Shown in pieces: positions 3,543-36,291 of a stretch of DNA of 64,000 bases. The stretch is from the NCBI GenBank assembly GCA_965219385.1, contig CBDCNM010000002.1:4102305-4166304 (forward strand), in the 5' to 3' direction. The DNA is from Candidatus Latescibacterota bacterium. GTDB taxonomy: Bacteria; Latescibacterota; UBA2968; UBA8231. Numbering within the stretch: the stretch's first letter is position 1; each line of letters begins with the position of its first letter. The position numbers were made by a program, and so were the translations under genes. The notes beneath the pieces were generated by a model that did no database searches, was not told the DNA's origin, and saw only the letters and a program-made list of their open reading frames with translations.

Positions 3543-4472
3543 TCACCGGACAAACATCGCCTTGATCCGGCCCCAGGTCACGCTCTCCACCGCCGAATCT
3601 GGGAGCTCACCCCCAGGACCCACCAGCAGCCCCCGGGCGAAGGTGTCGGCGTTCGAGATACCGGGCCACTGGTCCTGGCCGCTAATAAAATGGTGCCCTC
3701 CCGCCAGATCGCCCTCCACGTCAAAATCAAGAATTGACAGGATAAACCCGATCAGGGTCCCACGCGACAACGACGACACCACACTCTCCTCCGGGCTGTT
3801 CCAAATCAACCGATCAAAGGGCGTCACGTAGAATTCCGTCACCGATAGTGTGGGCTGCTCGCCGAAAGAAGCCCCACCCCCCTCCGCATACGGCGGTCGC
3901 CGAAACCAATCTTCGTCTCCAATCTGATCCCACAAGCATACATGGGGGCCGCCGCCTAAGAGTTCACCCCGGACGCGGTAGTATTGAGCATGTTGATTCT
4001 CCAGCAACCGGCGTTCCTCGTCGTCTTTGATCTCGTTGGGACCGAAGGAGTATTTCCCGCCGCTGGCGTCGCCGTCCACCCTGAATCTTACCGAAGAATC
4101 CTGCCCTATCATCGAAAAACATGAGGAGCTCGCATCATCACCTGCATAAACATATATATCATCCGCGCGCTCGACCGCTACATAGAGGCGCTGGGTGGCC
4201 CCGTGCCAGGCCAGCCAGACGCGGTAATCCATATCGGCCGGATCATACGATGCCCCCCAAGAAGCGGCCTGAAAGTCCAGGGCGGTCAGAGTGGGTTCGC
4301 CCAGCAGGTTGACCCACTCGTCAATCGAGCCATCGGTCACGTCGATTTGGGCCAGGTCCGCGTCGGTCAACTCGACAAAGGGATAGAGCCTTTCGCTTTC
4401 CTGTGCCTCAGCGCCACCAAGCAGCCCCACCACCGGGCCGATAATGGGCAGGAAACGCTGTACTGTTTTCAT
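3543..4472 (-). CDS. Secreted TWGRIK-motif protein, array copy 1 (possible DOMON/CBM9-like fold)
   Basis: Start MKTVQRF chosen by alignment with paralogs. Signal peptide ends AEA|QE. DGSIDEW, LYVAVERADD and DGDASGG motifs. C-terminus SAVESVTWGRIKAMFVR. Confidence 0.85.
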   Translation of the reverse strand: MKTVQRFLPIIGPVVGLLGGAEAQESERLYPFVELTDADLAQIDVTDGSIDEWVNLLGEPTLTALDFQAASWGASYDPADMDYRVWLAWHGATQRLYVAVERADDIYVYAGDDASSSCFSMIGQDSSVRFRVDGDASGGKYSFGPNEIKDDEERRLLENQHAQYYRVRGELLGGGPHVCLWDQIGDEDWFRRPPYAEGGGASFGEQPTLSVTEFYVTPFDRLIWNSPEESVVSSLSRGTLIGFILSILDFDVEGDLAGGHHFISGQDQWPGISNADTFARGLLVGPGGELPDSAVESVTWGRIKAMFVR

Positions 4473-4513
4473 CGCGGCCTTCTCGTATGTTGCATGGCCC
4501 TCGATCTTGCGCT

Positions 4514-5443
4514 TCACCGGACAAAGGTCGCCTTGATCCGGCCCCAGGTGAGACTCTCCACCGCTGAGTCGGGGAGCTCGCCCCCAGGACCCACCAGCAG
4601 CCCCCGGGCGAAGGTGTCGGCGTTCCGTGGATCGGACCAATAGTCCTGGCCCACAATAGAATGGACGGCTTCCGCCCGGGGGCCTTCCTCGTCAAGATCT
4701 ACAATTTGCAGGATAAACCCGATCAGGGTCCCAGGCGACAACGTCGACACCACACTCTCCTCGGGGCTGTCCTGAATCAACCGATCAAAGGGCGTCACGT
4801 AGAATTCCGTCACCGATAAGGTGGGATGCTCGCCGAAAGAAGCCCCGCCCCCCTCCGCATACGGCGGCTGCCGGAACCAATCTTCGTCTCCACTTTGACT
4901 CCACAAGCAAATATGGGGACCGCTGCCGAAGATGTCACCTAGGGCGAAGTACTCTTGAGCGTGTTGACTTGTCAGCCACCGGACTTCATCCGGATCGTTG
5001 CGGTCCCGGAAGTGGTATCTCCCGCCGCTGGCGTCGCCGTCCACCCTGAATCTTACCGAAGAATCATGCCCTATCATCGAAGCACATGAGGAGCTCACAT
5101 CACCACTTTCATAATTATTGACATATATATCATCCGCGCGCTCGACCGCTACATAGAGGCGCTGGGTGGCCCCGTGCCAGGCCAGCCAGACGCGGTAATC
5201 CATATCGGCCGGATCATACGGTGCCCGACCGGGACGGGTCTGAAAGTCCAGGGCGGTCAGGGTGGGTTCGCCCAGCAGGTCCTTCCACTCGTCAATCGAG
5301 CCATCGGTCACATCGATCTGGGCCAGGTCCGCGTCGGTCAACTCGACGAAGGGATAGAGCCTTTCGCTTTCCTGCGCCTCGGCGCCACCAAGCAGCCCCA
5401 TAACCAGGCCGGTAAATTGTAGGAAACGCTTTCCTATTTTCAT
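4514..5443 (-). CDS. Secreted TWGRIK-motif protein, array copy 2
   Basis: 309 aa with the same scaffold and signal peptide. Confidence 0.85.
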   Translation of the reverse strand: MKIGKRFLQFTGLVMGLLGGAEAQESERLYPFVELTDADLAQIDVTDGSIDEWKDLLGEPTLTALDFQTRPGRAPYDPADMDYRVWLAWHGATQRLYVAVERADDIYVNNYESGDVSSSCASMIGHDSSVRFRVDGDASGGRYHFRDRNDPDEVRWLTSQHAQEYFALGDIFGSGPHICLWSQSGDEDWFRQPPYAEGGGASFGEHPTLSVTEFYVTPFDRLIQDSPEESVVSTLSPGTLIGFILQIVDLDEEGPRAEAVHSIVGQDYWSDPRNADTFARGLLVGPGGELPDSAVESLTWGRIKATFVR

Positions 5444-5500
5444 CGGGGTCTTCTCTTAGGTTGCATGGGCCTCAAGACGGTCGGCCACTAGTCTTGCACC

Positions 5501-6412
5501 TCACCGCACAAACGTCGCTTTGATGCGGCCCCAGGTCATGCTCTCCACCGCCGAGTCGGGGAGCTCACCCCCAGGGCCCACCAGCAGCCCCCGGGCGGGG
5601 TCATAGCCCGCAAGGAAATGCCAGCTTTCATGCCCGCCAACTCCAATGTCATAATCTGGAATTACCAGGTCAAACCCGATCAGGGCGCCACGCGACAACG
5701 CCGACACCACACTCTCCTCCGGGCTGTTCCAGATCAACCGATCAAAGGGCGTCACATAAAATTCAATCACCGAAATCGTGGGGTGGGCCCCGAAAGAGGT
5801 CCCTCCCCCCTCCGCATACGGCGGCCGCTGAAACCAATCTTCGTCGTCATATAGACTCTGATCGGGCAAGCATATATGCGAGCCGCCGCCGAAGAGTTCG
5901 GCCAGGACGTAGTACTTTTGAGCGTGTTGATTCGTCCGCAGCCGGCGTTCCTCCTTGGCGTCGATATCGTTGCCATGGAAGGCGTATTTCCCGCCGCTGC
6001 CATCGCCGTCTACCAGGAATTGTACCGAAGAATCATGCTGCATCATCAAAAAACATGTGGCGATCCTTCCACCGTATTCAAACTCATTGATATATATATC
6101 ATCCGAGCGCTCGACCGCCACATAGATACGCTGGGTGGCCTCGTGCCAGGCCAGCCAGACGCGGAAATCCATATCCGCCGGATCATACAGGCCCGGCTCG
6201 GGAGCGGTCTGAAAGTCCAGGGCGGTCAGGGTGGGTTCATCCAGCAGGTCCACCCACTCGTCGACGGACCCATCGGTCACGTCGATTTGGGCCAGGTCCG
6301 CGTCGGTCAACTCGACGAAGGGATAGAGCCTTTCGCTTTCCTGTGCCTCGGCGCCACCAAGCAGCCCCACCACCAGGCCGATAATGGGTAGGGACCTCTT
6401 TATTAGGTTCAT
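5501..6412 (-). CDS. Secreted TWGRIK-motif protein, array copy 3
   Basis: Start MNLIKRS by paralogy, AGGA RBS. Last variable loop is shortened. Confidence 0.85.
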   Translation of the reverse strand: MNLIKRSLPIIGLVVGLLGGAEAQESERLYPFVELTDADLAQIDVTDGSVDEWVDLLDEPTLTALDFQTAPEPGLYDPADMDFRVWLAWHEATQRIYVAVERSDDIYINEFEYGGRIATCFLMMQHDSSVQFLVDGDGSGGKYAFHGNDIDAKEERRLRTNQHAQKYYVLAELFGGGSHICLPDQSLYDDEDWFQRPPYAEGGGTSFGAHPTISVIEFYVTPFDRLIWNSPEESVVSALSRGALIGFDLVIPDYDIGVGGHESWHFLAGYDPARGLLVGPGGELPDSAVESMTWGRIKATFVR

Positions 6413-6483
6413 CCTGGTCCTTCCTTGGGCTGTATTTCCATTGAGGTGGTCCCCCAGGCCCCGGCCGGCCGCTGGCGGACGCC

Positions 6484-7422
6484 TCACAGGACAAACATCG
6501 CCTTGATCCGGCCCCAGGTGAGACTCTCCACTGCCGAGTCGGGGATCTCACCTCCAGGGCCCACCAGAAGGCCCCGGGCGAAGCCGTCGGCGTTCGAGAG
6601 ACCGGGCCACTCGTCCTGGCCGCTAGTAAAATGGTGCCCTCTCCACCGCTCGCCTTCCACGTCATAATCACGCATGGACAGGACAAACCCGATCAGGGTC
6701 CCAGGCGACAACGTCGACACCACACTCTCCTCCGGGCTGTTCCAAATCAACCGATCAAAGGGCGTCACGTAGAATTCCGTCACCGATAGCGTGGGCTGCT
6801 CGCCGAAAGAGGCCCCGCCCCCCTCCGCATACGGCGGTAGCAGAAACCAACCTTCCTTTGCTCTGGAAGACCCCAAGCATACATGGGGGCCGCCGCCGGA
6901 GATGTCACCCAAGGCGTTGTAGTTTTGAGCCTGTTGACCATTCAGCAACCAGCGTTCATCCCGGTCCTTGATCTCGGTGGGACCGAAGGAGTATTGCCCG
7001 CCGCTGGCGTCGCCGTCCACTCTGAAGTTTACCGAAGAATCATGCCCCCACATCGAATCACATTCAGGTCTCGCCGCATCACTCCCGTCATAGGTATTAA
7101 TATATATATCATCGGAGCGCTCGACCGCCACATAGAGGCGGTGGGTGGCCCCGTGCCAGGCCAGCCAGACGCGGTAATCCATATCGGCCGGATTATACGG
7201 TGCCCGATCGGGATCGGTCTGAAAGTCCAGGGGGGTCAGGGTGGGTTCGCCCAGCAGGTCGACCCACTCGTCGACGGACCCATCGGTCACGTCGATCTGG
7301 GCCAGGTCTGCGTCGGTCAACTCGACGAAGGGATAGAGCCTTTCGCTTTCCTGTGCCTCGGCGCCACAAAGCAGCCCCAAAACCAGGCCGATAATGGATA
7401 GGGACCTCTTTATTAGGTTCAT
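6484..7422 (-). CDS. Secreted TWGRIK-motif protein, array copy 4
   Basis: Start MNLIKRS (alternative ATG at 7446). Same scaffold. Confidence 0.85.
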   Translation of the reverse strand: MNLIKRSLSIIGLVLGLLCGAEAQESERLYPFVELTDADLAQIDVTDGSVDEWVDLLGEPTLTPLDFQTDPDRAPYNPADMDYRVWLAWHGATHRLYVAVERSDDIYINTYDGSDAARPECDSMWGHDSSVNFRVDGDASGGQYSFGPTEIKDRDERWLLNGQQAQNYNALGDISGGGPHVCLGSSRAKEGWFLLPPYAEGGGASFGEQPTLSVTEFYVTPFDRLIWNSPEESVVSTLSPGTLIGFVLSMRDYDVEGERWRGHHFTSGQDEWPGLSNADGFARGLLVGPGGEIPDSAVESLTWGRIKAMFVL

Positions 7423-7518
7423 CCTGGTCCTCTTTAATGTTTTCATCGTGGTCCTCCCTTATGCCGCATTTCCATTGAGGCGGTCGCCTTGGCCCCGGTC
7501 GGCCACTAGTCTTGCACC

Positions 7519-8450
7519 TCACCGGACAAAGGTCGCCTTGATCCGGCCCCAGGTGAGACTCTCCACCGCTGAGTCGGGGATCTCACCCCCAGGACCCACC
7601 AGAAGGCCCCGGGCGAAGCCGTCGGCGTTCAAGCTGTCGGACCAATAGTCCTGGCCCGTAATAGAATGGACAGTTTCCGCCCGCCAGGCGCCTTCCTCGT
7701 CAATATCTCCAATGTGCAGGACAAACCCGATCAGGGTCCCAGGCGACAACGTCGACACCACACTCTCCTCGGGGCTGTCCTGAATCAACCGATCAAAGGG
7801 CGTCACGTAGAATTCCGTCACCGATAGCGTGGGATGCTCGCCGAAAGAAGCCCCCCCCCCTCCGCATACGGCGGCTGCCGGAACCAATCTTCGTCTCCAA
7901 TCTGATCCCACAAGCATACATGGGGGCCGCCGCCGACGATGTCACCCAGGAGGATGTAGTTTTGAGCGTGTTGATTATTCAGCAACCGGAGTTCATCCGA
8001 GACGTTGCGACCAAGGAAGAGGTATTGCCCGCCGCTGGCGTCTCCGTCCACGATGAAGGTTGCCGAAGAATCATGCCCCGTCATCAAATTACATGAGGGG
8101 GGCGTTCCATCACCTTCATAATTATTGACATATATATCATCCGAGCGTTCGATCGCCACATAGAGGCGGTGGGTGGCCCCGTGCCAGGCCAGCCAGACGC
8201 GGTAATCCATATCCGACGGATCATACGATGCCCCATCGGGACGGATCTGAAAGTCCAGGGCGGTCAGGGTGGGTTCGCCCAGCAGGTCGACCCACTCGTC
8301 GACGGACCCATCGGTCACGTCGATTTGGGCCAGGTCCGCGTCGGTCAACTCGACGAAGGGATAGAGCCTTTCGCTTTCCTGTGCCTCGGCGCTACAGAGC
8401 AACCCCACCACCAGGCCGATAAGTTGTAGGAAACGCTTTCCTGTTTTCAT
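7519..8450 (-). pseudogene. TWGRIK-motif protein copy 5, frameshifted at a C10/G10 homopolymer (7851-7860)
   Basis: Split into ORFs 7818..8450 and 7519..7917. Intact paralogs have 11 nt here (e.g. CCCCGCCCCCC in copy 2); this copy has 10 uninterrupted C. Confidence 0.85.
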
Positions 8451-8506
8451 CGGGGTCTTCTCTTATGCGGCATGGCCTTCAAGGCGGTCAGCCATGGTCT
8501 TGCACC

Positions 8507-9445
8507 TCACCGGACAAAGGTCGCCTTGATCCGGCCCCAGGTGAGACTCTCCACCGCCGAATCGGGGAGCTCGCCCCCAGGGCCCACCAGAAGGCCCCGG
8601 GCGAAGTCGTCGGCGTTCGAGATACCGGGCCACTGGTCCTGGCCGCTAATAAAATGGTGCCCTCCCGCCAGCTCGCCCTCCACGTCAAAATCACGAATGG
8701 ACAGGATAAACCCGATCAGGGTCCCACGCGACAACGTCGACACCACACTCTCCTCCGGGCTGTTCCAAATCAACCGATCAAAGGGCGTCACGTAGAATTC
8801 CGTCACCGATAGCGTGGGATGAGCCCCGAAAGAGGCCCCACCCCCCTCCGCATACGGCGGTAGATTGTACCAACCTTCCTTTGCTCTGGAAGCCCCCAAG
8901 CATACATGGGGGCCGCCGCCGACGATGTCACCCAAGGCGTTGTAGCTTTGAGCGTGTTGATAATTCAGCAACTGGCGTTCCTCGTCGTCCTTGATCTCGT
9001 TGAGACTGAAGACGTATTTCCCGCCGCTGGCGTCGCCGTCCACTATGAAGTTTACCGAAGAATCATGCACCCTCATCCCAACACATTCAGGTCTCGCCGC
9101 ATCACTCCCGTCATAGTTATTAATGTATATATCATCGGAGCGCTCGACCGCCACATAGATTCGGTGGGTGGCCCCGTGCCAGGCCAGCCAGACGCGGTAA
9201 TCCATATCGGCCGGATCATACGGGGCCCGGTCGGGACGGGTCTGAAAGTCCAGGGCGGTCAGGGTGGGTTCGCCCAGCAGGTCGATCCACTCGTCAATCG
9301 AGCCATCGGTCACATCGATCTGGGCCAAGTCTGAGTCGGTCAACTCGACGAAGGGATAGATTCTTTCGCTTTCCTGCGCCTCGGCAACATGGAGTAGCCC
9401 CACCACCAAGCCGATAATGGGTAGGGGCCTCTTTACTAAGTTCAT
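8507..9445 (-). CDS. Secreted TWGRIK-motif protein, array copy 6
   Basis: 312 aa with AGGAGG RBS. Confidence 0.85.
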   Translation of the reverse strand: MNLVKRPLPIIGLVVGLLHVAEAQESERIYPFVELTDSDLAQIDVTDGSIDEWIDLLGEPTLTALDFQTRPDRAPYDPADMDYRVWLAWHGATHRIYVAVERSDDIYINNYDGSDAARPECVGMRVHDSSVNFIVDGDASGGKYVFSLNEIKDDEERQLLNYQHAQSYNALGDIVGGGPHVCLGASRAKEGWYNLPPYAEGGGASFGAHPTLSVTEFYVTPFDRLIWNSPEESVVSTLSRGTLIGFILSIRDFDVEGELAGGHHFISGQDQWPGISNADDFARGLLVGPGGELPDSAVESLTWGRIKATFVR

Positions 9446-9796
9446 CCTGGTCCTCCTTTATGTTGAATTTCCCTTGAGGCGGTCATATACCCATTGGGCC
9501 ACCATCAAGCCGGCGATCCAACGGACAGGTTCACACCGCTTCATCCAACCGCGCAAACTCGCTGCCTCAGTAATGGGTTAGCCGCCGGCCAGCACCGCAC
9601 CGGACAACCGTTGCCTTGATCCGGCCCCAGGTGATACGGGCACGGGTTCAGCGCGAGGGAAAACATTCGTTCTTTCAATCAAAGCCAACACGTTGCGTGG
9701 CGGTGCAAAAACCATCGTAACCTGTCGATCCTTCAAATAGATAGCGATTTTCCCCTCTACTGAACCCGTGCCACCATGTATAACGGCGTAGCTTAA
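9446..9796. repeat. Duplicated upstream region, copy A (matches 14034-14406 and resumes at 10705-10721 after the IS5)
   Basis: Colinear blocks shared with 14034-14423, e.g. ACGGACAGGTTCAC, AACTCGCTGCCTCAGTAATGG and AACGGCGTAGCTTAAG. Confidence 0.9.
9639..9772. mobile_element. 134-bp MITE-like element with GGCACGGGTTCAG terminal inverted repeats
   Basis: 13-bp perfect IR extending imperfectly to ~25 bp. No TSD found. Second copy at 14249-14382. Confidence 0.6.
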
Positions 9797-10701
9797 GAGG
9801 CCCTAACAAAACTCTTTGAGGTACTTCCAACAGATGAGAATACATCCGATGTCGAGAAAGGCTTCATGGAGATCACCTCGTCGCTCCCAGCGGACTCGAA
9901 GCCGACGGAATTGGTGCAACCATGCCAACGTTCGTTCCACCACCCACCGATAGACGCCCAAGCCGCTGCCGTGGGCTTGCCCTCGCCGAGCCAACACCGA
10001 GCCGATGCCCCGCTTACGCAAGGCGCGCCGATGGGCTTGCGAATCATAGGCCCGATCCCCTTGCACCCGATCCGGCCGACGACGCGGGCGGCCGACCCGA
10101 CCGGCCACCGGGGGTATGCGATCCACCAACGGCAACAGCTGCGTCACATCATGCCGATGGGCCCCCGTCACCCCCGCCGCCAACGGCACCCCTTGGGCAT
10201 CGGTGATTACATGGTGTTTGCTACCGGGTTTGCCGCGGTCCGTCGGATTGGGACCGGTGTGCGCCCCCCCCCAACCGCCCGCACCGAGGCACTATCGACC
10301 ACCGCACGAGACCAATCAATCCGGTCGGCGGCCCTCAGTCGGTTCAACAGGATATGATGGACTCTTTTCCAGACCCCGGCTTGTTGCCAAGCGTGCAGGC
10401 GACGCCAACAGGTCATCCCCGAACCGCACCCCATCTCTTGAGGCAAATACTCCCAAGGGATACCCGTCTTGAGCACAAAGAGAATGCCGGTCAGCACCCT
10501 ACGGTTATCCAGCCGAGGCCGCCCCCCTTGGGGGCCAACGGTTACGGGGGGCAAAACCGGTTCAATCAAGGCCCATAACCCATCGTCGAGTAACGGCTTG
10601 GCCATCAAAAACACCTCCATATCAAGACGGTAGAAGCAATACCGAAGAGGATAAGAATATAATGAAGCCTATACGCGATTCCAAGGTTTTGTTAGAGACT
10701 C
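9797..10701 (-). mobile_element. IS5-family element (IS427-like, two ORFs with frameshift), 905 bp
   Basis: TIRs GAGGCCCTAACAAAA / GAGTCTCTAACAAAA. TAA duplication at 9794-9796 and 10702-10704. The paralogous empty site has a single TAA at 14404-14406. Confidence 0.95.
9803..10620 (-). CDS. IS5-family transposase (orfA 10207..10620 plus orfB frame, joined by a frameshift near the G9 run at 10264-10272)
   Basis: GILFVLKTGIPWEYLP, VDSASVRA, GDRAYDS and RWVVERTLAWLHQFRRL motifs. Confidence 0.9.
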
Positions 10702-10711
10702 TAAGTACCGA

Positions 10712-10829
10712 GCCGCTCAAGACTGTGAGTCTTTATATCTTGAGGGCTTTGTTGCATGGAAGACGATAACTTATTGGGACACAACAAGTCGAGTTACAGA
10801 TATTCGTGCAACAAAGCCTATCTTGAGCG
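10712..10829 (-). terminator. Hairpin CGCTCAAGA...TCTTGAGCG downstream of the peptide gene, interrupted by the 74-bp MITE
   Basis: Inverted repeat directly 3' of the stop codon, restored when the MITE is removed. No clear U-tract. Confidence 0.4.
10745..10818. mobile_element. 74-bp MITE with IS903-like TIR (GGCTTTGTTGCA) and 9-bp TSD
   Basis: Perfect 12-bp IR, flanked by TATCTTGAG at 10736-10744 and 10819-10827. Confidence 0.85.
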
Positions 10830-11117
10830 TCAATAGCAATAGCAAACATCGTCGTCATGCACGGAACACATGTACCTGTCGCATTTTTTATCGTTGTCGC
10901 AAATATCGCCACAGTACTCCTCTTTCTTATGACAGTCCTTAAGAGGTGTGGGGCCCTTCTTACAAGTGCGTGCCTCGGCCGGGTCGGGTGCCAGCACCAC
11001 GGCGGCTGCCAGCAGAAGGCCCACCACCCAGGCTACCGGCAGACCCGTCCTCGGCGACACATAGCCGCTCTCGCTCGTGACAAACTCGGTCAATGTTCTA
11101 CGCAAATGAAGCAGCAT
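10830..11117 (-). CDS. Secreted 8-cysteine peptide precursor (defensin/scorpion-toxin-like spacing)
   Basis: AAGGA RBS, leader with FVTSESG, hydrophobic stretch and AEA cleavage site. The 46-aa core has C-x9-C-x6-C-x3-C-x5-C-x4-C-x7-C-x-C. Confidence 0.8.
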   Translation of the reverse strand: MLLHLRRTLTEFVTSESGYVSPRTGLPVAWVVGLLLAAAVVLAPDPAEARTCKKGPTPLKDCHKKEEYCGDICDNDKKCDRYMCSVHDDDVCYCY

Positions 11118-11251
11118 AACAGGTTCCTTTCGTTAATTAGAAAAAAACAAGGGCAAAATACGGTCCTCCCCACCCCATTGGTGCACTCAAACCATGCTCT
11201 CACCTCCTTTCAGGCAAGCTCGACAGGTCCAGGGAAGTCCGTCGAGGGGCA

Positions 11252-11827
11252 TCAGGGCCCCCGCGGCTTGAGGACATCGGCTACCAACTGCTGCACCAGT
11301 TCAAGCCCGCCCGGCACCCCAACGGCAGAATCTTTGATCTGACCTTCTCCATCGAGCAGGTAGGTCGTTGGCACCGACAGGGCTTTATAGGCTGCCGATA
11401 CGCCCCCCGTAGTGTCCTGCAATACCGGAAACAGGCCCGCGACTTGGCCTTCGAGCACCTGTACCTCAGCAGAAAGTTCCTCCCGTTGCTTGCTACCTCG
11501 GCTGATAAACACCAGACGATGGTGCAGATCCGGTAACCCCTCGTCGATCAGGCTTTGCTTCAACTCTTTGCAGTACGGGCAAGTAGGGGTCACAAACATT
11601 AGCACCGAGGAAGCGCCCCTGAGATCTTGCAGGGCCATGCCTTCGCCCTGAACACCGGGCAGGTGAAAGTCCGGCGCGGCGGTGCCCCGCGGTAGCCGAC
11701 TCTTGCCCTTAACCACGAGGCGCTGCAACAGCGAGGATTCCGGCGCTTCGGCCACCCGTAGCGCCCCGACCAGGGCCACGGCCAGCACGCCACCAACGAT
11801 ACCCGGTTGGTAGGTTTTTAGGTCCAT
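11252..11827 (-). CDS. Membrane-anchored TlpA/MauD-like thioredoxin-fold protein (CPYC)
   Basis: N-terminal TM, GTAAPDFHL, TPTCPYC and SVPTTYLLD. TGATG coupling to the upstream gene. Confidence 0.85.
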   Translation of the reverse strand: MDLKTYQPGIVGGVLAVALVGALRVAEAPESSLLQRLVVKGKSRLPRGTAAPDFHLPGVQGEGMALQDLRGASSVLMFVTPTCPYCKELKQSLIDEGLPDLHHRLVFISRGSKQREELSAEVQVLEGQVAGLFPVLQDTTGGVSAAYKALSVPTTYLLDGEGQIKDSAVGVPGGLELVQQLVADVLKPRGP

Positions 11828-12372
11828 CAAATGCCTCCTGATTTAGGCTCATTCCAGGCGAGAATCTGCTCGACACTCTTACTCCCTGTAGCCGCCTGAC
11901 GCACGATGCCCTCCGGGTCAATCAACAAAACGCTGGGAAGAGTCCTGACCCGGTACAATTGCTGCACCGTGTGCAAACTATCATATCCCACCGCCACCGC
12001 CACCTTGCCCCATCGAGCGGCTAATTGCTGCCGATCGCCCACCCCAACCACCACCACCGGCAGTCGTTCCGCCGCTTGCTGAAGCGACGGATAGGCCGCC
12101 TGGCAAGCCCCACAGGCCGAATCGGTAAAAAACAACAGCCAGGCCGTAGCCCCAGGGGCACTCTGCAGGGAAACGACTCCCCCAGTGACCCCCTCCATCT
12201 CGAAGGGGGGGGCCGAATGCCCCAATAAATGCGCGAAGGGGAGGGGCCGAATGCCCGGCGGAGCCCCCGTTTCCAAGCGCACCCCCAGGCCGATACACAG
12301 CGCCAGCAACACCCCTACAACCCCTGACAGCGGCAAGACTAGAGGATTCAACGCGTCTCCAGAGGTTGCCAT
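11827..12372 (-). CDS. Membrane-anchored TlpA/MauD-like thioredoxin-fold protein (CGAC)
   Basis: AAGGAGG RBS, TM segment, GHSAPPF, SACGAC and TLPSVLLIDPEG. Confidence 0.85.
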   Translation of the reverse strand: MATSGDALNPLVLPLSGVVGVLLALCIGLGVRLETGAPPGIRPLPFAHLLGHSAPPFEMEGVTGGVVSLQSAPGATAWLLFFTDSACGACQAAYPSLQQAAERLPVVVVGVGDRQQLAARWGKVAVAVGYDSLHTVQQLYRVRTLPSVLLIDPEGIVRQAATGSKSVEQILAWNEPKSGGI

Positions 12373-12388
12373 CGCCTTTGCCTCCTTT

Positions 12389-12967
12389 CTATCCATCAAT
12401 CCAGGCCCCTAAGCCGGCAAGCTGCCCCAGCAGGGCGCGCACCGTAAGCGTTGCCCCGGTCAGCCCGTCCACCTCCGGACCCAACCGCAACGAATCGCGC
12501 ACCGAACGCCCCACCAACTGGGCCAGGAACCCCGCTGGGTCAACCGGCCCGCTCGCCGTTTCCCAACCCGCCAGCGGCACTATCCCGGCCATGTGCGGCG
12601 TATCTGGGGCCAGAAAGACCGCCACCAGCAAATCCTTGCAGGTGGTGCAGGCAATATCGTGCCGCACCACCGCCAGCCTATAGATGGGCTGATGGTCCTC
12701 GTGTACCTGATAGACCTGGACCACGCCGGAACGCGGTGCCGGTTGGGGGCTGTAGATCACCTGGAGGCGAGGCGCGACCAGTTCTGGGTTAAACTGTCGG
12801 GTTATAGTGCGTAAATGCGGTTCGGAAGGAAGCGCGGGCAGGGCTGGCTCAGCGGGCCGGTCGGCAGCGTCGGGGGAGAGGTGCAACAGGACGAGCACCC
12901 CTGACCCCAGCACGAGGATCAGGCCCAGCAGGAGGTAGACGGCAGGATCGCGTACGGACCAGGACAT
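12389..12967 (-). CDS. Membrane-anchored FMN-binding (RnfG/NqrC-type flavinylation motif) protein with CxxC
   Basis: Start MSWSVRD with GGGAG RBS, N-terminal TM, HDIACTTC and C-terminal VDGLTGATLT. Confidence 0.75.
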   Translation of the reverse strand: MSWSVRDPAVYLLLGLILVLGSGVLVLLHLSPDAADRPAEPALPALPSEPHLRTITRQFNPELVAPRLQVIYSPQPAPRSGVVQVYQVHEDHQPIYRLAVVRHDIACTTCKDLLVAVFLAPDTPHMAGIVPLAGWETASGPVDPAGFLAQLVGRSVRDSLRLGPEVDGLTGATLTVRALLGQLAGLGAWIDG

Positions 12968-13094
12968 CGGCCGACTCCCGACTCCCGGTTGGCAGGCACA
13001 TCTAAGCATAAATATAATCGAGTCGAGGGGCCCATGCAAGCCCGGGCAAGCCAGGGCGTTGGGGGGGGGCCATACGACGGCCCGGCCTTTGTGC

Positions 13095-14033
13095 TTAGGG
13101 GATAAAGGTCGCCTTGATCCGGCCCCAGGTGAGACTCTCCACCGCTGGGTCGGGGAGCTCACCCCCGGGGCCCACCAGCAGCCCCCGGGCGAAGAAGTCG
13201 TCCAGGGTCTTCTCAATAAAATGCCAGGCTTCTGGCCGCCAGGCGCCTTCCTCGTCAAAATCTGCAATTGCCAGGTAAAACCCGATCAGGGTCCCAGGCG
13301 ACAACACTGACACCACACTCTCCGCCGGGCTGTTCCAAATCAACCGATCAAAGGGTGTCACGTAGAATTCCGTCACCGATAGCGTGGGATGAGCCCCGAA
13401 AGAGGCCCCACCTCCCTCCGCATACGGCGGCAGATTGAACCAATCTTCGTCGTTATATACACTCTGATCGGCCAAGCATACATGGGGGCCGCCGCCGACG
13501 ATGTCACCCAGGACGTAGTAGTCTTGAGCGTGTTGATTTATCCGCAGCCGGAGTTCCTCATCGAACCCGGGGCCTATATTGACACTGCCCTCCGAGAAGC
13601 GGCGGTGTTCCCCGCCGCTGGCGTCGCCGTCCACCCTGAAGAATACCGAAGAATCATGCCTCTCCATCCAAATACATGAACGGATCGTTCCATCATATTC
13701 ATACTTATTGATATATATATCATCGGCGCGCTCGACCGCCACATAGATACGCTGGGTGGCCCCGTGCCAGGCCAGCCAGACGCGGTAATCCATATCCACC
13801 GGATCATACGAGACCCCATCGGGACCGGTCTGAAAGTCCAGGGGGATCAGGGTGGGTTCACCCAGCAGGTCGACCCACTCGTCGACGGACCCATCGGTCA
13901 CGTCGATCTGGGCCAGATCCGCGTCGGTCAACTCGACGAAGGGATAGAGCCTTTCGCTTTCCTGTGCCTCGGCGCCATGGAGCAGCCCCACCACCAGGCC
14001 GATAATGGGTAGGGAACGCTTTACTAGGTTCAT
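13095..14033 (-). CDS. Secreted TWGRIK-motif protein, array copy 7
   Basis: 312 aa with the same scaffold. Confidence 0.85.
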   Translation of the reverse strand: MNLVKRSLPIIGLVVGLLHGAEAQESERLYPFVELTDADLAQIDVTDGSVDEWVDLLGEPTLIPLDFQTGPDGVSYDPVDMDYRVWLAWHGATQRIYVAVERADDIYINKYEYDGTIRSCIWMERHDSSVFFRVDGDASGGEHRRFSEGSVNIGPGFDEELRLRINQHAQDYYVLGDIVGGGPHVCLADQSVYNDEDWFNLPPYAEGGGASFGAHPTLSVTEFYVTPFDRLIWNSPAESVVSVLSPGTLIGFYLAIADFDEEGAWRPEAWHFIEKTLDDFFARGLLVGPGGELPDPAVESLTWGRIKATFIP

Positions 14034-14423
14034 CGTGGTCCTTCCTTAGGTTGAATTTCCCTTGATGTGGTCATATACCCGTTGGGCCGCCATAAAGCCG
14101 GCGGTCCAACGGACAGGTTCACGCCATTGGCCTCCGAGCACTCCGTGCGCTTCATCCAACCGCGCGAACTCGCTGCCTCAGTAATGGTTAGCCGCCGGCC
14201 AGCGCCTCACCGGTCAACCGTCGGGTTTATCCGGCCCCAGGTGCTACAGGCACGGGTTCAGCACGAGGGGAAACATTCGTTATTTCAATCAAAATCAACA
14301 CGTTGTGCGGCTATGCAAAAACCACCATAACCCGTCGATCCTTCAGATAGATAGCGATTCTCTCCTCTGCTGAACCCGTGCCACCATGTACAACGGCGTA
14401 GCTTAAGTAGCAAGCCGCTCAAG
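14034..14423. repeat. Duplicated upstream region, copy B, containing the 134-bp MITE (14249-14382) and the empty IS5 site
   Basis: Matches 9446-9796 plus 10705-10721. Confidence 0.9.
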
Positions 14424-24141: not shown

Positions 24142-24241
24142 TGGTCTTTCAATTAAAATACCTGATTTAATCAACGCCTCTTCGTAGACTCACTTCAAAA
24201 AGGCGTGAGCGGTGAACTCTTCGACCAAATATCAGGGGTGG

Positions 24242-25999
24242 TCAGGGAGCCACGGGCGCACCTTTCGCCGCTCTTGCCTCGATGCGCTCGCGGATATCCG
24301 TCGCGACCTCAAGGACTTCCACAGGTGCGCGAACCGCTTCGCCGGTATGCTGGCGGAGAGCGACGATGAGGGGTGCCAACGTGCCGGATTTCGCCTTGTC
24401 GCTCGACAGGATCTCGACAAGGTCATGCGCCGAGGCGCCAGATACGATCAAGTCGGGCACAATCCTTTGCATCTCGTACATCATCATTTCGTTGCCGGGC
24501 AGGAACGCGGCATACGCTGAGCGGAACGCGTCCATGGCGGCCTGGCGTTTTTCCTGGACCATCAGCGCCAGCGCCCGCACACACATTGCTCGCCATTCAA
24601 ACCAAGTTTTCCCGTCTCCTGCAGGAAAGGTTCCGAGTCTTCGTTCGAGTTCTTCGCAGGCCTGCAGAGCTTCTTCTGCACGACCGGTCTCGGCTTGTCT
24701 CATACCTTTGTAGCTCAAGGCGATGGCGACCTTCGTCGACTCCGCCGCACCGCTGTCACCGAAGCGTTCGACCACCTCCGGCGACTCCGCCGCCTCCGAA
24801 GTCAGCTTGCCGGACATCTGGTACAATTCGCCTATCCCGTAGAACACCACCATGAAATGGATCAAGTTTGCCACAACCGCTGACTCGTCGCGTTCGCGCC
24901 GCAGCTTGTAGTAGATACTGTAGAGACGTTCCGCTGCGGCGTACAGCCGCTTCTTGCCGCGCCCCTCCACGATGACCGCACCCCGGATGGCGAGCCGCCC
25001 GAGCAGGGTCGATACGGTTCGGACGTCCATGCGCGCCCGCGCCGCGATCTCGCCCGTGCTCGACGGTTGCCAAAGGTCAATCACCGCGAGATACACGCGG
25101 CGTTCGCCCTTGGGCAAGACCTCCAGATGACCACGGAAATACTCGGTATGGTCGTCGATCAGCGTCACCAGTTCTTCCATCAACTGGCGCAGCGACCGGT
25201 GCCGTGCGAACTCGGCGACTATGACCAGAAGGCGAGGGCTGCCGCCGGTCAGGATTTCGAGCGGCCTGATGCGCCGGCTCACCGCGTCCCCGTTGACGAC
25301 CTGCCACAGGCGACGGCATTCTTCGGTGGAGAGCGGTTCCAAAGCGACGATTCGGAACAGCTCGAAGAACGGCTGCTCCGCGTCGTCCAGACCCTCAAAG
25401 CGACTCGTGGCGGTGGCAAGCAGCATGATCTGGGGCTCCGATTGCAACGTGCCGCGCAACTTCCAGCCGAAATCTTTGTCCACGTTTCCGCAGAGCGTCT
25501 GTAGGTTCTCGACCATGAGGACGAGTTTTTTGCCCAGCCGATCCGCCGCCTCCAGGACAAGGGCACGGACGCGATCAGCGAGCGTTTCCTCGCGCCACCG
25601 ATTAGTCAGGTCGGCGTGCGTCTCTCGCAATTCTCCAGCGAGTGCGGGATCGTGCGTCGCGCTCTCCCGCGCAAGGTGGAACAAGGTGTCGAGCCAGAAG
25701 TCGGCGAGATTGAATATCTCGTGACTCTCTTCCATGAACCGGACCGGCAAAAGACACTCGGAGAGTTCGTGGTCGGTGTTCAGCTCCGCCGCAACCCGAG
25801 CCAGCAGCATGGTCTTTCCCCGACCGCGAGGCGCGACGACCAGAACGTGCTGGCACGATGGTGAATCGAGGTTCCCGCGGAGGACCTCAAGCACGATGTC
25901 GAGTTCGTGTTTCCTGACCACGAACTGCTCTATCACCTCCTCGGCGGACTGGAACGTCCCCGGATTGAACTTGCGGATCGGCCGGTCGGACTTGTTCAT
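24242..25999 (-). CDS. AAA+/STAND-like ATPase with winged helix and degenerate TPR tail
   Basis: APRGRGKT Walker A, MVENL Walker B variant, LTGGSPR, HTH-like STGEIAARARMDVRTVS and TPR-like AIALSYKG. Confidence 0.75.
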   Translation of the reverse strand: MNKSDRPIRKFNPGTFQSAEEVIEQFVVRKHELDIVLEVLRGNLDSPSCQHVLVVAPRGRGKTMLLARVAAELNTDHELSECLLPVRFMEESHEIFNLADFWLDTLFHLARESATHDPALAGELRETHADLTNRWREETLADRVRALVLEAADRLGKKLVLMVENLQTLCGNVDKDFGWKLRGTLQSEPQIMLLATATSRFEGLDDAEQPFFELFRIVALEPLSTEECRRLWQVVNGDAVSRRIRPLEILTGGSPRLLVIVAEFARHRSLRQLMEELVTLIDDHTEYFRGHLEVLPKGERRVYLAVIDLWQPSSTGEIAARARMDVRTVSTLLGRLAIRGAVIVEGRGKKRLYAAAERLYSIYYKLRRERDESAVVANLIHFMVVFYGIGELYQMSGKLTSEAAESPEVVERFGDSGAAESTKVAIALSYKGMRQAETGRAEEALQACEELERRLGTFPAGDGKTWFEWRAMCVRALALMVQEKRQAAMDAFRSAYAAFLPGNEMMMYEMQRIVPDLIVSGASAHDLVEILSSDKAKSGTLAPLIVALRQHTGEAVRAPVEVLEVATDIRERIEARAAKGAPVAP

Positions 26000-27240
26000 T
26001 GCACGTCTCCCGGTGATTCGTCTTCAGAACGGCGGCCTTCGAGGGGTTTGTGGTGGTCGCGGAAGCGCGCCGACCACCAGTCCTTCAGCAAGCGCGACGG
26101 GAAGCGATGGCCATCGTCGCCGGCTTCGAGATAGCCGTCGTGCATCAGGATTTCGAGTGTATCCGCGATGAGCCCCGGGGCATCGTCAACCACCTTGGCG
26201 TACAGCCGTTCGAGGCAGCGATTCGCGCTTGGCGTGAACACCTCCTGGGTGGCTGCCTCGGCGAGGATCTCCATGGCGATGGTGTGGCTCTCATCTTCCA
26301 ACCCCTCATTGAGGCGCGTCTCGTAGTGTACGAGATCGTTCTGCCCCGAAGGCCCGAGGAGCTCCGTGCGATAGACCTCCCCGACGTCTTTCATCGTCAC
26401 TTGGTCCCGCCCCTGCATGGTGGCGTGGTCCCGCAAACGTGCGAAGAAGGACTGCACATGGTGGGGAATGCCGACGCCGAGCGCGTCGTACACCGCGTTT
26501 GCCACCCCGTCCTCGACCCGTAACTCGTGACTCTCCGCGAGACGAGTGAAACACTCGACACTGGTGTCACGATCCCACGGCCCCAGGCGAAAAGGATCGA
26601 GATGATTGATGCGGTCGGGTATGCCCAGCCGCTTTACGAGAGGTGCGAGCCCAATGCTGCCGGATACGATGAGGACCGGGGAGCCGTCTCCGAGAGCCTG
26701 AAGCACGCCGCGCAACCAGCTCAGAAACTCGTCGACCAGTCGTGCACCATCGTCGCCGTGAAGCATTCGCTTGAGGAATATCGGCAACTCGTCAATGACG
26801 AGGAGAACCGGCTTGTCCTGCGCGGCGCATGCACGGAGCAATTGCTCCCCGTAACGGCGCCAGCTTCCGGCATCCAGCCCGGCGCGGATCTTGACGCGAA
26901 AATCGAGCGCGCTGACCTCTTCGATGTTGTCGCTGAGCCAGCGCTTCATCCCGGTGGCAAAACGCGACGCGATCGAGCGAACCGGATGCACGGCCTGTGC
27001 GATGTCCGCGATCGCGTCCTCCGCGCAGATCGCTCCCTCGACATCGGCGAAAAGGAAGACCCAACCCTTAGCCTCGAGCCGTCGCCCGAGCTCTCGGACG
27101 ACGCTGGTCTTGCCCATGCGCCGCTGTCCAGTCAACAATACGTGGTTGCCGTCCCGGACCCGCGTTTCCAGTATCCGTAGCTCGCGCTCGCGATCAAAAA
27201 AGTCGCCGCCGCTTACCCAGCGGCCGGTCGATGATCTCAT
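25996..27240 (-). CDS. P-loop ATPase (archaeal-ATPase/STAND-like)
   Basis: FFDREREL, GQRRMGKTS, LVIDELP and SGSIG motifs. ATGA coupling to the next gene. Confidence 0.8.
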   Translation of the reverse strand: MRSSTGRWVSGGDFFDRERELRILETRVRDGNHVLLTGQRRMGKTSVVRELGRRLEAKGWVFLFADVEGAICAEDAIADIAQAVHPVRSIASRFATGMKRWLSDNIEEVSALDFRVKIRAGLDAGSWRRYGEQLLRACAAQDKPVLLVIDELPIFLKRMLHGDDGARLVDEFLSWLRGVLQALGDGSPVLIVSGSIGLAPLVKRLGIPDRINHLDPFRLGPWDRDTSVECFTRLAESHELRVEDGVANAVYDALGVGIPHHVQSFFARLRDHATMQGRDQVTMKDVGEVYRTELLGPSGQNDLVHYETRLNEGLEDESHTIAMEILAEAATQEVFTPSANRCLERLYAKVVDDAPGLIADTLEILMHDGYLEAGDDGHRFPSRLLKDWWSARFRDHHKPLEGRRSEDESPGDVQ

Positions 27241-27250
27241 GGCCCCTCCC

Positions 27251-27314
27251 TTATTCAACAAAACTGTTGAATAAATATAATATTCAACAAAACTGTTGTC
27301 AACGAATTTGTTGA
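27251..27314. promoter_or_regulatory. Three tandem operator-like palindromes (TCAACA-N4-TGTTGA consensus)
   Basis: Perfect TTATTCAACA-AAAC-TGTTGAATAA at 27251-27274, a repeat at 27281-27298 and a degenerate copy at 27299-27314. Confidence 0.65.
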
Positions 27315-27499
27315 GAAAACCAAAGGGCGATGTGAATTGATCGCGGGCACTGTTGCAACGTGACCGCCTTCTGGGGCGAGGAAAGCGTTTCCCTATCCGT
27401 CTGGGACTCCTAAGAGGACCTTCCTAAGAGGACCTAAGGGAATCGGGAAGGCAGGTTCAATCGGCACCTCACGCGCGTGAGCGTGACTTGTTGCAGGCG

Positions 27500-27900
27500 G
27501 GGTTGCCGCCCTTTTCGGCATAGGCCATGAAAAGGCGGTCGGCGAGCGCGGCCACGGCGCAGAAATGCGTAAAGTACCCAGGTCGGCACGCTGATGACCA
27601 TCGCATAGACCGCAATCGCCGCGGGGCCAAGCAGGCCTGCGAACAGAGACGACACCGCAGCTACAAGCGCCAGCACGGCAAGCGGCAGCCACGCATAAAG
27701 CTCCACTGTCCATGCCACGGAACGAGGCTACAAGGAAACCGCCGACAATCGTCACATCGGTTTCGCGCAGCATCCGGGCAAGATCGTAGGTCTTGAGGAT
27801 CACGTCGCCCGGACAACACACCGAGCAGAAAAAGCCAATCAGCCTTCTATCGAGGATGCCGAGGTGGCCCCCAGTGTCAGCGCAACGCCGCAACGCCGCC
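27500..27900 (-). pseudogene. DprA-like relic interrupted by an unrelated membrane-protein fragment
   Basis: IGFFCSVCCPGDVILKTYDLARMLRETDVTIVGGF and ALADRLFMAYAEKGG match 29061..29723. Confidence 0.75.
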
Positions 27901-28079
27901 GGAGTGTCCGGTGTCCCCGGTTCGTGCGGCCGGCGTTGGGCAAAACCACACCCATTTCGGCGCTTTGTAGATCCAGCCGATTTGTGCAACCAGTGGTTGC
28001 ACTTGCTACCGGTCGGCATAAGGGTCGGCGGCGTCTCTCATGCCATCGCCGACCGCGTTTTTATGACACATTCTTGGCA

Positions 28080-29003
28080 TTACGGAAATTTTTCATCAGC
28101 TTCAGCCAGAAACACAATAGCTGATGCCGTCATGTGCAACATGTACGCAACAAGGTGATCTGGCACGGATACCGGAGTTGTACCTTGACCATGACCGCTC
28201 AACTTGTTGCGTCCAGTAGGTACGCTACTCTCCAAAAGACTTCTCAGGGACGAATAATGCGATTGCCAAAACGATGGAATCAGCCCGTTATCAAAACAAG
28301 CCTGGATCAAGGGCTTTGATGTTGCATTGTTACTATAACCCCAGCCTCTCTTATCGCAAATCGCTTTCATTACGCTCTCGAACGCTTTTAGACACTCGCT
28401 GAGAGCTTCTTTGGCGTTTCCCTTTCGGTAGTGGTCGTGCGCTTTCAAGAACTCCTGTTGTGCTCCAGCATAGTGCTGTTGGCCGAGCAGCTTGAGCGCA
28501 GGCTTAACAACTTCAGCGTGAATGAACTCGGAGTCGATGCGGACAATCTGCCCGTTTGTGAATTGATAGCCAACGCCATGCTCCTTGAATCTGTTATTCA
28601 ATTCTTCTATTGCGTCATCGGCTCTTTCTGAAGCGTCATATCGTTCTAGGTAATTGTAAGATCTTGTCCTGCTGTCTATAACCTGAAACGACAACTCTAC
28701 TACATCAAGAGCCTTTTCGACATTTTCTTCATTAAGGAAGAAATTTACAAGTTCCATAACAGCATTTTCATTTTCACGATGTAGCTGAAAAACACCATAT
28801 TCACGATGTAGGGTATTAACTATGGATATATAAGCATTTCTTGCTTGGTCTCTGAGGTATGGATCCTGACCGGCAATAGTATCAGACCAAATTTGAACAA
28901 TCTGTACTCTGAGAGGATTGGGCAAGTCGTCATAAACATAGACGTCAGGCATCTCCCCTCGAAGTTTCTTTTGGCGTTTCGAGTATATGTCAAATATCGG
29001 CAA
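28080..29003 (-). CDS. AbiJ-like / STM4504-CBY_0614-like abortive-infection family protein
   Basis: TTG start with AGGAGG. IFDIYSKRQK, LRVQIVQI, KAFESVMK and HEPN-like RNKLSGHGQG. AT-rich. Confidence 0.7.
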   Translation of the reverse strand: MPIFDIYSKRQKKLRGEMPDVYVYDDLPNPLRVQIVQIWSDTIAGQDPYLRDQARNAYISIVNTLHREYGVFQLHRENENAVMELVNFFLNEENVEKALDVVELSFQVIDSRTRSYNYLERYDASERADDAIEELNNRFKEHGVGYQFTNGQIVRIDSEFIHAEVVKPALKLLGQQHYAGAQQEFLKAHDHYRKGNAKEALSECLKAFESVMKAICDKRGWGYSNNATSKPLIQACFDNGLIPSFWQSHYSSLRSLLESSVPTGRNKLSGHGQGTTPVSVPDHLVAYMLHMTASAIVFLAEADEKFP

Positions 29004-29060
29004 GATTGATTCCTCCTAAATACTATAACGTTAAGGCGGGTACTACGCCAAGTTCCGCAT

Positions 29061-29723
29061 TCACTTCTTCGCAACCAAAGGCGCAAAGTCTTCAGCTCGG
29101 ACCGGCACAACGCCAAGTTTTACGAGATGCGCGTTATCCGGGGAGTCTATGGCAAACATTGGTTTTCCGTCGATGAGCGCTTCCTTGCACAATGCCTCGG
29201 TCTTGCCGCCCTTTTCGGCATGGGCAATAAGGATGCGGTCGGCGAGCGCGGCGATATGGGCATTGCGCTTGACCGCAAGATCGGCTGTGGGGCGGAGAAT
29301 GCTGTCGTCAAAAAAGGACAGAATCAGCAAGCGCCCTTCGGCCAGCGGTTCCTTCCAGCCTTTCGGAATCCGCATCCGGCCAAGCCCCCGAGCCGGAGAG
29401 ACCACGACGGACGCTGAACCTCGCAACAGCAAGTCCAAGCACTCCTTCTCCATCGGCGACTGAAAACCGCCGACAATCGTCACGTTGGTTTCGCGCAGCA
29501 TCCGCGCAAGATCGTAGGTCTTGAGGATCACGTCGCCCGGGCAATGCACCGAGCAAAAGAAGCCAATCCGGGTGCTGTCGAGTACGCTGAGGCGGCCTTG
29601 GGAAGTAACTACGGGTAACTGCCCATCAGCGAAACGGTGCTGCAAGGCCGCTGGGTAGTCGGGCGCGTCGGACAGGAAGCGACGAAGAATAAAATCGGCA
29701 GCCTTCCCACCTTCATGTATCAT
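29061..29723 (-). CDS. DprA/Smf-like (SLOG) protein
   Basis: IVGGFQSPMEKECL, AVKRNAHIAALAD and HAEKGGKT motifs. Confidence 0.75.
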   Translation of the reverse strand: MIHEGGKAADFILRRFLSDAPDYPAALQHRFADGQLPVVTSQGRLSVLDSTRIGFFCSVHCPGDVILKTYDLARMLRETNVTIVGGFQSPMEKECLDLLLRGSASVVVSPARGLGRMRIPKGWKEPLAEGRLLILSFFDDSILRPTADLAVKRNAHIAALADRILIAHAEKGGKTEALCKEALIDGKPMFAIDSPDNAHLVKLGVVPVRAEDFAPLVAKK

Positions 29724-29753
29724 TCTCAGGACCCTCCTTCCCCATACGGTATC

Positions 29754-30284
29754 TCATTCATCCTTCCCCATTGGTAGGACACCTAGATCTACCAGACACT
29801 GGATAAGGTCGTTGTTCAGTTTACCTACTTCAGCGCAGAGCTTCCTGATGGAACTATGGCTGACGTCCTGGACAGCATCGAACTCACCTGAACGTTTTAA
29901 GTTAATCATATTAACTGGCCCTTCCTCGATTGGGAACATCCATGAGCCATGAGTGAACTTATTGCGGCGAGATACGGCTGACTCCATGGACCTTCGCCAA
30001 TTCCTAATTCTCGACGCAAACTCATCAGGTAAGAGCTGTTCTGCCATCATCTGAACGAGCTTCATTTTCCGCTGCATGTCGAGTTGCGAGACGATGATCT
30101 GTCCCAGAATGTCCGCGGTCTTCACCTCTTTTGTGACAGTCCTAAATAGGCATGAGACCGCCATGTTGGTGAGGAGCTCAGTATTTGCGAACAGCAAGGT
30201 CATCTCACCAAGTGCCTTTATGAGTTCAGATTGCCTAGCTCCGGCATTCCTCAGCTTTGTTTCAAATCTCTCTGAGTCACTCAT
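29754..30284 (-). CDS. Hypothetical protein, possibly HEPN-like
   Basis: 176 aa with RRNKFTHG (RxxxxH). Confidence 0.55.
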   Translation of the reverse strand: MSDSERFETKLRNAGARQSELIKALGEMTLLFANTELLTNMAVSCLFRTVTKEVKTADILGQIIVSQLDMQRKMKLVQMMAEQLLPDEFASRIRNWRRSMESAVSRRNKFTHGSWMFPIEEGPVNMINLKRSGEFDAVQDVSHSSIRKLCAEVGKLNNDLIQCLVDLGVLPMGKDE

Positions 30285-30381
30285 GCACTACTCCTTTTCC
30301 ATCGGCGACTGGAAACCGCCGACAATCGTCACGGCGGATTGCACTTTTGGCAGATCGCGGCAGGAACGAGTGATTTGGCGG

Positions 30382-30582: not shown

Positions 30583-30601
30583 AGTTTCCCTTTGTTCCTC
30601 T

Positions 30602-33907: not shown

Positions 33908-34067
33908 TGGAATGTCCCGGATTAGCTGTTCGTTTTTAGCACCTTAGAGTCGGGTAATGTATCGCACCCACAATAATTTTCTGTATAAAATTTAGTTGAC
34001 AGTGCCCAAATTAACCATACCAATCATGAATAACGCACTTGACAAAATTCTCTAAAAATGCGAATTT

Positions 34068-36282: not shown

Positions 36283-36291
36283 GCAATTATT

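Follow-up and report, generated by a model that had tools for sequence, protein, structure and literature searches.

Positions 3543–14033 of a 64,000-nucleotide stretch of a Candidatus Latescibacterota genome (GenBank assembly GCA_965219385.1, contig CBDCNM010000002.1; hereafter the window, in whose coordinates all positions are given) hold an array of paralogous minus-strand genes, the products of which have a predicted fold resembling the family 9 carbohydrate-binding modules (CBM9). These paralogs recombine with each other and carry an excess of amino-acid change in their variable segments; in related bacteria such genes stand in a recurring order with a gene for a variable Cys-rich peptide, and their copy number rises with the presence of that peptide. 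Both the gene family and the operon that appears to mature the peptide are undescribed, and they are tightly linked. Because related bacteria repeatedly put such genes right behind the peptide gene, we read the array as a likely antibody-like repertoire of binders that would neutralize peptides of this kind. Tentatively, and with a confidence that falls a little short of even, we favor the explanation that the peptide is a polymorphic antibacterial agent and that the CBM9-like proteins would be its cognate and orphan antidotes or decoys, which recombine and are selected at their binding pocket.

The CBM9-like paralogs and their predicted pocket

The array comprises seven paralogs of 303–312 amino acids, six in tandem at a spacing of about 1 kb and the seventh 3.6 kb upstream. 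In ascending coordinates, copy 1 (3543–4472), with a predicted signal peptide and a TWGxIK tail, is followed by copy 2 (4514–5443), which has a near-identical counterpart (P0122) in another assembly, by copies 3 (5501–6412) and 4 (6484–7422), by copy 5 (7519–8450) and by copy 6 (8507–9445), the first gene downstream of the peptide and likely its cognate partner. Copy 7 lies at 13095–14033; a protein of another assembly (P0038) has the same N-terminal part joined to another last variable segment. An initial annotation of this DNA had described a seven-copy array of secreted proteins with a fixed scaffold and recombined loops. Seven paralogs are indeed present, but copy 5 has no intact open reading frame (ORF), its frame changing at a run of ten G residues (7851–7860). 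An intact allele of this copy (P0141) exists in another assembly, and the frameshifted letters of the window copy are matched by contigs of three runs, with one flank of only 26 nt. All six shared segments quoted in the annotation were found in the copy pairs to which it had assigned them, and every mature protein contains two Cys. Frameshifts in the family occur at two slippery tracts, this G run and an AT repeat (G000 C2 4176350–4178271), and one of them is apparently common to a related strain; some frameshifted copies may be phase-variable or retained as sequence donors.

The entire genome (5.8 Mb, 2 contigs) contains 31 family loci at 9 places, of which 19 are intact, 3 are full-length but frameshifted and 9 are fragments. 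Homologs were found in every one of 24 genomes from its GTDB family and in none of 16 from other families of the class. The named relatives are mostly Candidatus Latescibacterota, and the wider family forms 1090 clusters at 50% identity. The window copies have no match in Pfam or NCBIfam; the CBM9 model PF06452 matched none of 6 window copies and none of the 89 members of the alignment, and among the distant proteins 3 of 29 match it weakly, below cut-off, in their CBM9-like domain. Sequence searches of the PDB with single copies or with a first alignment returned nothing useful. The initial suggestion of a CBM9- or DOMON-like beta-sandwich is nonetheless upheld at the level of predicted structure: the AlphaFold2 (AF2) model of the mature protein has a mean predicted local distance difference test score (pLDDT) of 88, and it resembles the CBM9 modules CkCBM9.3 (7NWN) and TmCBM9-2 (1I82) with Foldseek E values of 3e-8 to 1e-6 and Z scores of 16.9–17.8 (root-mean-square deviation about 3 Å over 184–187 residues). 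The conserved Asp motifs are at places equivalent to those of the CBM9 modules described by Krska et al. (2021, PMC8280721), and the variable sites fall at the equivalent pocket. Unlike those modules, the window copies share only about 14% identity with them, have some 80 extra residues and stand alone rather than being appended to a xylanase.

The placement of the variable sites rests on alignment mapping rather than on model coordinates. A profile alignment to 1I82 (E 0.015) equates Trp71 with mature position 102 (or 103, if a one-residue insertion shifts it) and Trp175 with position 252; these two residues form the sugar clamp of CBM9 (PMC8280721). Of the 289 positions, 102 is the most variable, and 252 is within the top ten. 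The variable regions that the annotation had called loops are real, but they also include residues that alternate along four beta-strands (mature 107/109/111, 144/146, 224/226/228 and 240/242), and the variable sites as a whole are gathered at one binding site, the predicted CBM9 sugar pocket. Aromatic residues occupy both clamp sites in 0 of 19 intact copies, as against 7 of 7 low-copy loci (6 distinct sequences) from genomes without a peptide of the type found here (hereafter close-type). Between the distinct low-copy sequences, variable regions and framework are equally conserved (identity 0.47–0.85 vs 0.49–0.81), whereas in the present genome the median identity is 0.50 in variable regions and 0.91 in framework. 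The loss of the clamp makes the glycan ligand toward which the initial annotation had pointed doubtful. The pocket itself is hypervariable.

In codon models, the ratio of nonsynonymous to synonymous change (omega) is 2–3 in variable segments V2, V3 and V5, which were delimited after the data were seen (log-likelihood gains over omega 1 of 5.2, 8.7 and 10.5), and 0.2–0.3 in the framework. Seven ligand-equivalent sites, five of which are placed by residue number, have an omega of 2.3 (1.7–3.2), and in post hoc sets of positions the nonsynonymous divergence (dN) is 0.99 at the pocket and 0.05 on the opposite strand face.

Diversification by recombination or gene conversion, as the annotation had supposed, is borne out by the agreement of the pairwise homoplasy index (PHI), clonal simulations and identical tracts. 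PHI gives p = 0.0005 for the 6 intact window genes, for the 19 genes of the genome and for third codon positions alone, with an observed z of −11; the 20 clonal simulations, in which each segment had its own rate, gave −0.9 to +4.7. For 11 of 15 segment pairs, the distance correlation was as low in at most 3 of 300 clonal simulations; V2–V4, V3–F5, V3–V5 and F5–V5 did not differ from the simulations. Identical tracts above a global permutation threshold occur in 41 of 231 gene pairs (e.g., 96 nt in copies 1 and 6), and the nearest relative of copy 1 changes from copy 2 in V2 to copy 5 in V4 and to copy 6 in V5. We rely on the clonal simulations because the approximately unbiased (AU) test, with 30 of 30 cross-segment rejections, favors each segment's own tree by construction. 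The four-gamete test on allele classes was weak: 81 proteins yielded only 3 quartets. Applied to partial arrays from other genomes, PHI was significant in G070, G063 and G015 and not in G048 and G017.

The expectation that other strains would carry other repertoires also held. In a related strain, represented by proteins on one 5.7-Mb contig (at least 30 full-length recovered, from 26 clusters), 3 of 20 genes have a counterpart at 95% identity or more and 0 of 20 at 97.5%; 5–8 of 12–15 allele classes per segment are common to both, but of 19 four-segment combinations only 3 are. Short contigs of other assemblies, possibly from the same population, carry near-identical versions of 7 of 20 genes, and the persistence of these versions indicates that shuffling takes place over evolutionary time. 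As a process the recombination is ordinary, and it proceeds via the conserved framework blocks. An assembly chimera as the source of the mosaicism was rejected: variable-segment alleles recur in other assemblies, and contigs of other runs, which may include the source sample, match variable stretches exactly (e.g., 6811–7026 and 5845–6135). A diversity-generating retroelement was likewise rejected, with no adenine bias in the variable columns (A 56, C 59, G 70, T 50); the sole reverse transcriptase-like motif match in the genome sits on the other contig.

Such retroelements and programmed antigenic variation (vlsE, pilE/pilS) combine a constant scaffold with variable binding segments. The array resembles them in having both, and its broken copies could donate sequence. 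It differs from them in the lack of adenine bias and of any reverse transcriptase among the listed window ORFs, and in that most copies are full genes, that there is no single expression site and that near-identical copies persist in another assembly.

The peptide gene, its operon and its partners

The interval between copies 6 and 7 (9446–13094) contains an IS5-type insertion sequence (IS) element, the Cys-rich peptide gene, two thioredoxin-like genes and a flavin-motif gene, all on the minus strand. The peptide gene (10830–11117), which received no mention in the initial annotation, encodes a precursor of 95 amino acids with an F..ESG leader, a hydrophobic segment, an AxA site and a 46-residue core with eight Cys (CxxxC ... 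CxC). Its relatives share a conserved leader with F..ESG or F..SSG, a hydrophobic stretch and AxA; their cores are highly variable and nearly all end in CxC. Upstream of it lie thioredoxin-like protein 1 (11252–11830; CPYC), similar to AhpC-TSA, ResA and MauD below NCBIfam cut-offs, thioredoxin-like protein 2 (11827–12399; CGAC), each with an N-terminal hydrophobic segment, and an FMN-binding-like protein of uncertain start (12389–13042) with CTTC and DGLTGAT motifs and weak PF04205/RnfG-like matches.

The peptide has no Pfam or NCBIfam match. The AF2 model of its core consists of a helix and two strands (core pLDDT 73–83), and its Foldseek matches are not significant (best E 2.0; E 0.69 to actinodefensin for one relative). 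Of 34 weak Foldseek rows, 20 are what we take to be proteins of the cysteine-stabilized alpha-beta (CS-alpha-beta) fold. A defensin-like topology is thus predicted, and, like plant CS-alpha-beta defensins and actinodefensins, the peptide has a CxxxC helix and a terminal CxC; unlike them, it lacks a significant match, has an unusual double leader with a linked A24 peptidase and, in many cases, an acidic core. The leader resembles class III (prepilin-type) signal peptides in its F..(E/S)(S/E)G motif before a hydrophobic segment and in the linked PF01478 peptidase with both invariant Asp motifs. It departs from them in having polar residues after the Gly and a conserved AxA after the hydrophobic stretch, and therefore the product looks like a released peptide rather than a pilin.

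Seven peptide loci exist in the genome (three complete, one without a clear start and three 5'-truncated), all beside family genes, with a family gene or fragment no more than about 1.4 kb away. The trio of flavin-motif and two thioredoxin genes occurs three times. There are four full-length A24 peptidase genes (PF01478), each after a family gene, and the peptidase that would act on the window peptide is encoded elsewhere in the genome; both Asp motifs are kept in 10 of 10 aligned homologs. In other genera the gene order is (flavin-motif)–thioredoxin–thioredoxin–A24–peptide–CBM9-like; this thioredoxin/A24 operon is also found with peptides that have an unrelated propeller gene behind them. Because both thioredoxins belong to this recurring operon, maturation of the peptide is their likely role. 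The suggestion that they could also service the Cys pair of the array proteins is not supported: they are part of the peptide operon, and the pair (positions 98 and 159), which is kept in 80 of 82 clade proteins, is absent at these places from each of 13 partners in other genera. At L044:7891–8295 (G000 C2 4175890–4176294), a family N-terminus is fused in frame to the C-terminal half of a peptide.

Loci fetched by thioredoxin, A24 or peptide matches yielded 21 close-type peptides, of which 14 (7 genomes, 3 genera) have a family gene at most 406 bp downstream. In 2 others an IS element intervenes, in 1 a propeller gene, and 1 lies at an assembly gap; in the window, the IS5-type element separates the peptide from copy 6. 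Behind 32 of 43 more distant peptides stands a gene for a protein of about 700 amino acids, which in 3 of 3 tested cases was an FG-GAP protein with a FlgD-type tail, and 3 other tested neighbors were PD40 propellers; the slot behind the peptide thus takes, on the evidence of these matches, other binding scaffolds in other lineages. Long arrays of peptide and FG-GAP partner pairs occur at L125–L129 and L132 (G072, G074 and G046), with 6–7 peptides within about 30–40 kb in G072 and G074. At L084 and L085, in two records labeled 'uncultured bacterium', A24-linked Cys-rich peptides are followed by PD40 propellers, which suggests a wider spread.

Family copy number differs with the presence of the peptide. 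Among 61 genomes, the 10 with a close-type peptide have from 3 to at least 38 family matches (median 15), whereas the 51 without one have a median of 2 and a maximum of 7. The contrast is also seen within genus g18 (13, 3, 12, 10 and 17 with the peptide vs 3, 3, 2, 1 and 7 without).

Other features of the locus and the window

The IS5-type insertion (9798–10700, ends approximate) consists of two ORFs (10207–10620 and 9803–10189) that match DUF4096 and DDE_Tnp_1, each with about 70 tblastn hits in the genome. Between it and copy 6 lies a repeated block (9446–9797) with a 25-bp inverted repeat (arms 9639–9663 and 9748–9772) and a relic of a family 3' end (about 9597–9634); a second copy of the block lies upstream of copy 7 (14034–14420). 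The 134-bp element bounded by the inverted arms (9639–9772 and about 14249–14382) has 7 copies in G000 C2, found only upstream of family genes, beside a family 3'-end relic and in one orientation, on which ground an invertible promoter was rejected; the element may be a promoter, an RNA leader or a MITE. The block has no Rfam match, and a sigma-70 scan of it gave chance-level results. Contigs of RNA runs, which cannot reveal expression, cover parts of the locus (shares 0.11–0.15). In G070, a family gene (L030:12275–13654) has its second half duplicated internally and is likely the product of unequal crossing-over.

The TWGxIK-type tail ends 51 ORFs, unrelated or paralogous, of 76 motif occurrences genome-wide, has no Pfam or NCBIfam model that we could find and looks like a minimal sorting signal. 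Tails of the FlgD or type IX secretion system (T9SS) type were found on 7 of 8 long relatives, and PF18962 or PF13860 on no window copy. These tails, together with the SprA and PorV encoded in the genome, make export of the CBM9-like proteins beyond the periplasm plausible. Near-identical pieces of the locus come from a sponge metatranscriptome run, and for this reason the bacterium is likely sponge-dwelling.

Elsewhere in the window, a MurG-like glycosyltransferase fused to HEAT repeats and then a MraY-like gene (50–2843) have no obvious division cluster nearby. Two lower-GC stretches (about 24200–40000 and 50300–62600) contain restriction-modification, helicase, ATPase and abortive-infection-like genes, read from their translations, and are probably a defence island. 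At 41644–45616, two paralogous genes in tandem each encode a membrane protein of about 650 amino acids.

Explanations for the linked repertoire

Under the antidote explanation, the A24 peptidase would cut the peptide leader at F..ESG, signal peptidase would free the core, and the two thioredoxins with the flavin-motif protein would set its disulfides, to produce a disulfide-rich, defensin-like and likely antibacterial weapon. The first CBM9-like gene behind the peptide would encode its cognate antidote, and the remaining ones orphan antidotes against peptides that competing strains make; over evolutionary time and without a programmed switch, the set would be renewed by recombination through the framework together with diversifying selection at the pocket. 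The closest analogues are the tandem strings of non-identical, recombining immunity genes esaG of Staphylococcus aureus and tipC of streptococci, as presented by Garrett et al. (2022, PMC9484751). As in the esaG strings, the paralogs here are non-identical, tied to a polymorphic putative toxin and provided with conserved blocks through which recombination, gain and loss can proceed; the binders are encoded directly behind the putative toxin and outnumber the peptides. The systems differ in that there is no type VII secretion system here, the putative toxin is a 46-residue disulfide-rich peptide with an A24-type leader, and the binder is CBM9-like and predicted to be exported; the toxin and immunity roles here are putative. 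We found no paper on the family or the peptide operon in the literature outside subscription journals, and the main text of PMC12993501 does not mention CBM9, DOMON or T9SS. A more far-reaching version, which we regard as possible but more doubtful, would have sponge-associated Latescibacterota fight with polymorphic bacterial defensins matured by a dedicated prepilin-type peptidase and two thioredoxins, and protect themselves by an antibody-like set of antidotes in which the sugar-binding CBM9 pocket has become a recombining, positively selected paratope; in other lineages FG-GAP or PD40 propellers would take that role.

Several observations weigh against this explanation. Typical defensins are cationic; many of the peptide cores here are acidic. 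Three of the 21 close-type peptides have no family gene downstream. The family is found in 56 of 60 genomes of the bacterial family, most of them without the peptide, and on this account appears to be older than the peptide system. The genomes in the copy-number contrast are related, which keeps it from being an independent test in the statistical sense, and both peptide and family genes may be missed where assemblies are fragmented. In 16 peptide–partner pairs, peptide similarity within genera tracks the partner's pocket weakly (Mantel r = 0.44, p = 0.03) and its framework almost equally (r = 0.37, p = 0.055), and therefore co-duplication explains the covariation equally well; genus g16 gives no such signal, and charge complementarity is absent (rho 0.04). 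In the codon models V4 has an omega of about 1 and not above, the segments with omega 2–3 were chosen with the data in hand, and the top third of columns set independently from distant homologs has an omega of 1.17 (95% CI 0.85–1.61), which is not above 1. A complex prediction for copy 6 with the 46-residue core scored 0.02 (mark 0.32) and counts neither for nor against the explanation.

The alternative that we would rank next, though we think it rather unlikely, is a repertoire of lectins or adhesins that binds sponge or microbial glycans or surface proteins, with the peptide adjacent by co-regulation or at recombination hot spots. The CBM9 fold itself, the Atlas neighbors with CBM9_1 on 13–94% of their members, the T9SS-type tails of relatives with SprA and PorV in the genome, and the many family loci with no peptide nearby would all fit such a function; the loss of the aromatic clamp from all 19 intact copies, the peptide-then-partner order in three genera, the unrelated scaffolds that fill the slot elsewhere and an expansion that tracks the peptide do not. 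It is less likely still that the protein is a carrier which binds its cognate peptide in the periplasm and presents it at the surface, perhaps to the host, with the extra copies left over from duplication. One-to-one peptide–partner pairs in other lineages, their FlgD/T9SS-type tails and the predicted export signals on both genes agree with display, but partners far exceed peptides both here (22 full-length vs 7 loci) and in G015, G042 and G048 (at least 38 vs 1–6), and the orphan copies keep a conserved framework and diversified pockets.

We consider it improbable that the array merely reflects neutral birth and death of a tandem family under relaxed surface constraint and unequal crossing-over. 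That 12 of 31 loci are broken or partial, that IS elements are abundant and that the independently defined columns give an omega near 1 accord with this, and against it stand the high omega in three segments, the concentration of variation at the pocket with the opposite face conserved, and the independent expansions in three genera that coincide with the peptide. Plant SCR/SP11 and SRK provide an analogue for a polymorphic peptide and a matching binder that together form a kin-identity pair; such a self/non-self function, or binders that neutralize host defensins, would suit the paired polymorphism of an eight-Cys peptide and a lectin-derived binder. The binder, however, has no transmembrane or signaling domain, and among the fetched loci we saw no receptor gene; we hold this to be the least likely of the alternatives.

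If the antidote explanation is correct, an uncultured, sponge-associated lineage would possess an undescribed peptide toxin–antidote system in which a carbohydrate-binding module has been repurposed as a peptide-binding scaffold, and it would offer many natural ligand–binder pairs whose specificity can be tested with small recombinant proteins. If the ligand is instead a glycan, the family would still be a natural combinatorial binding library built on one stable fold.

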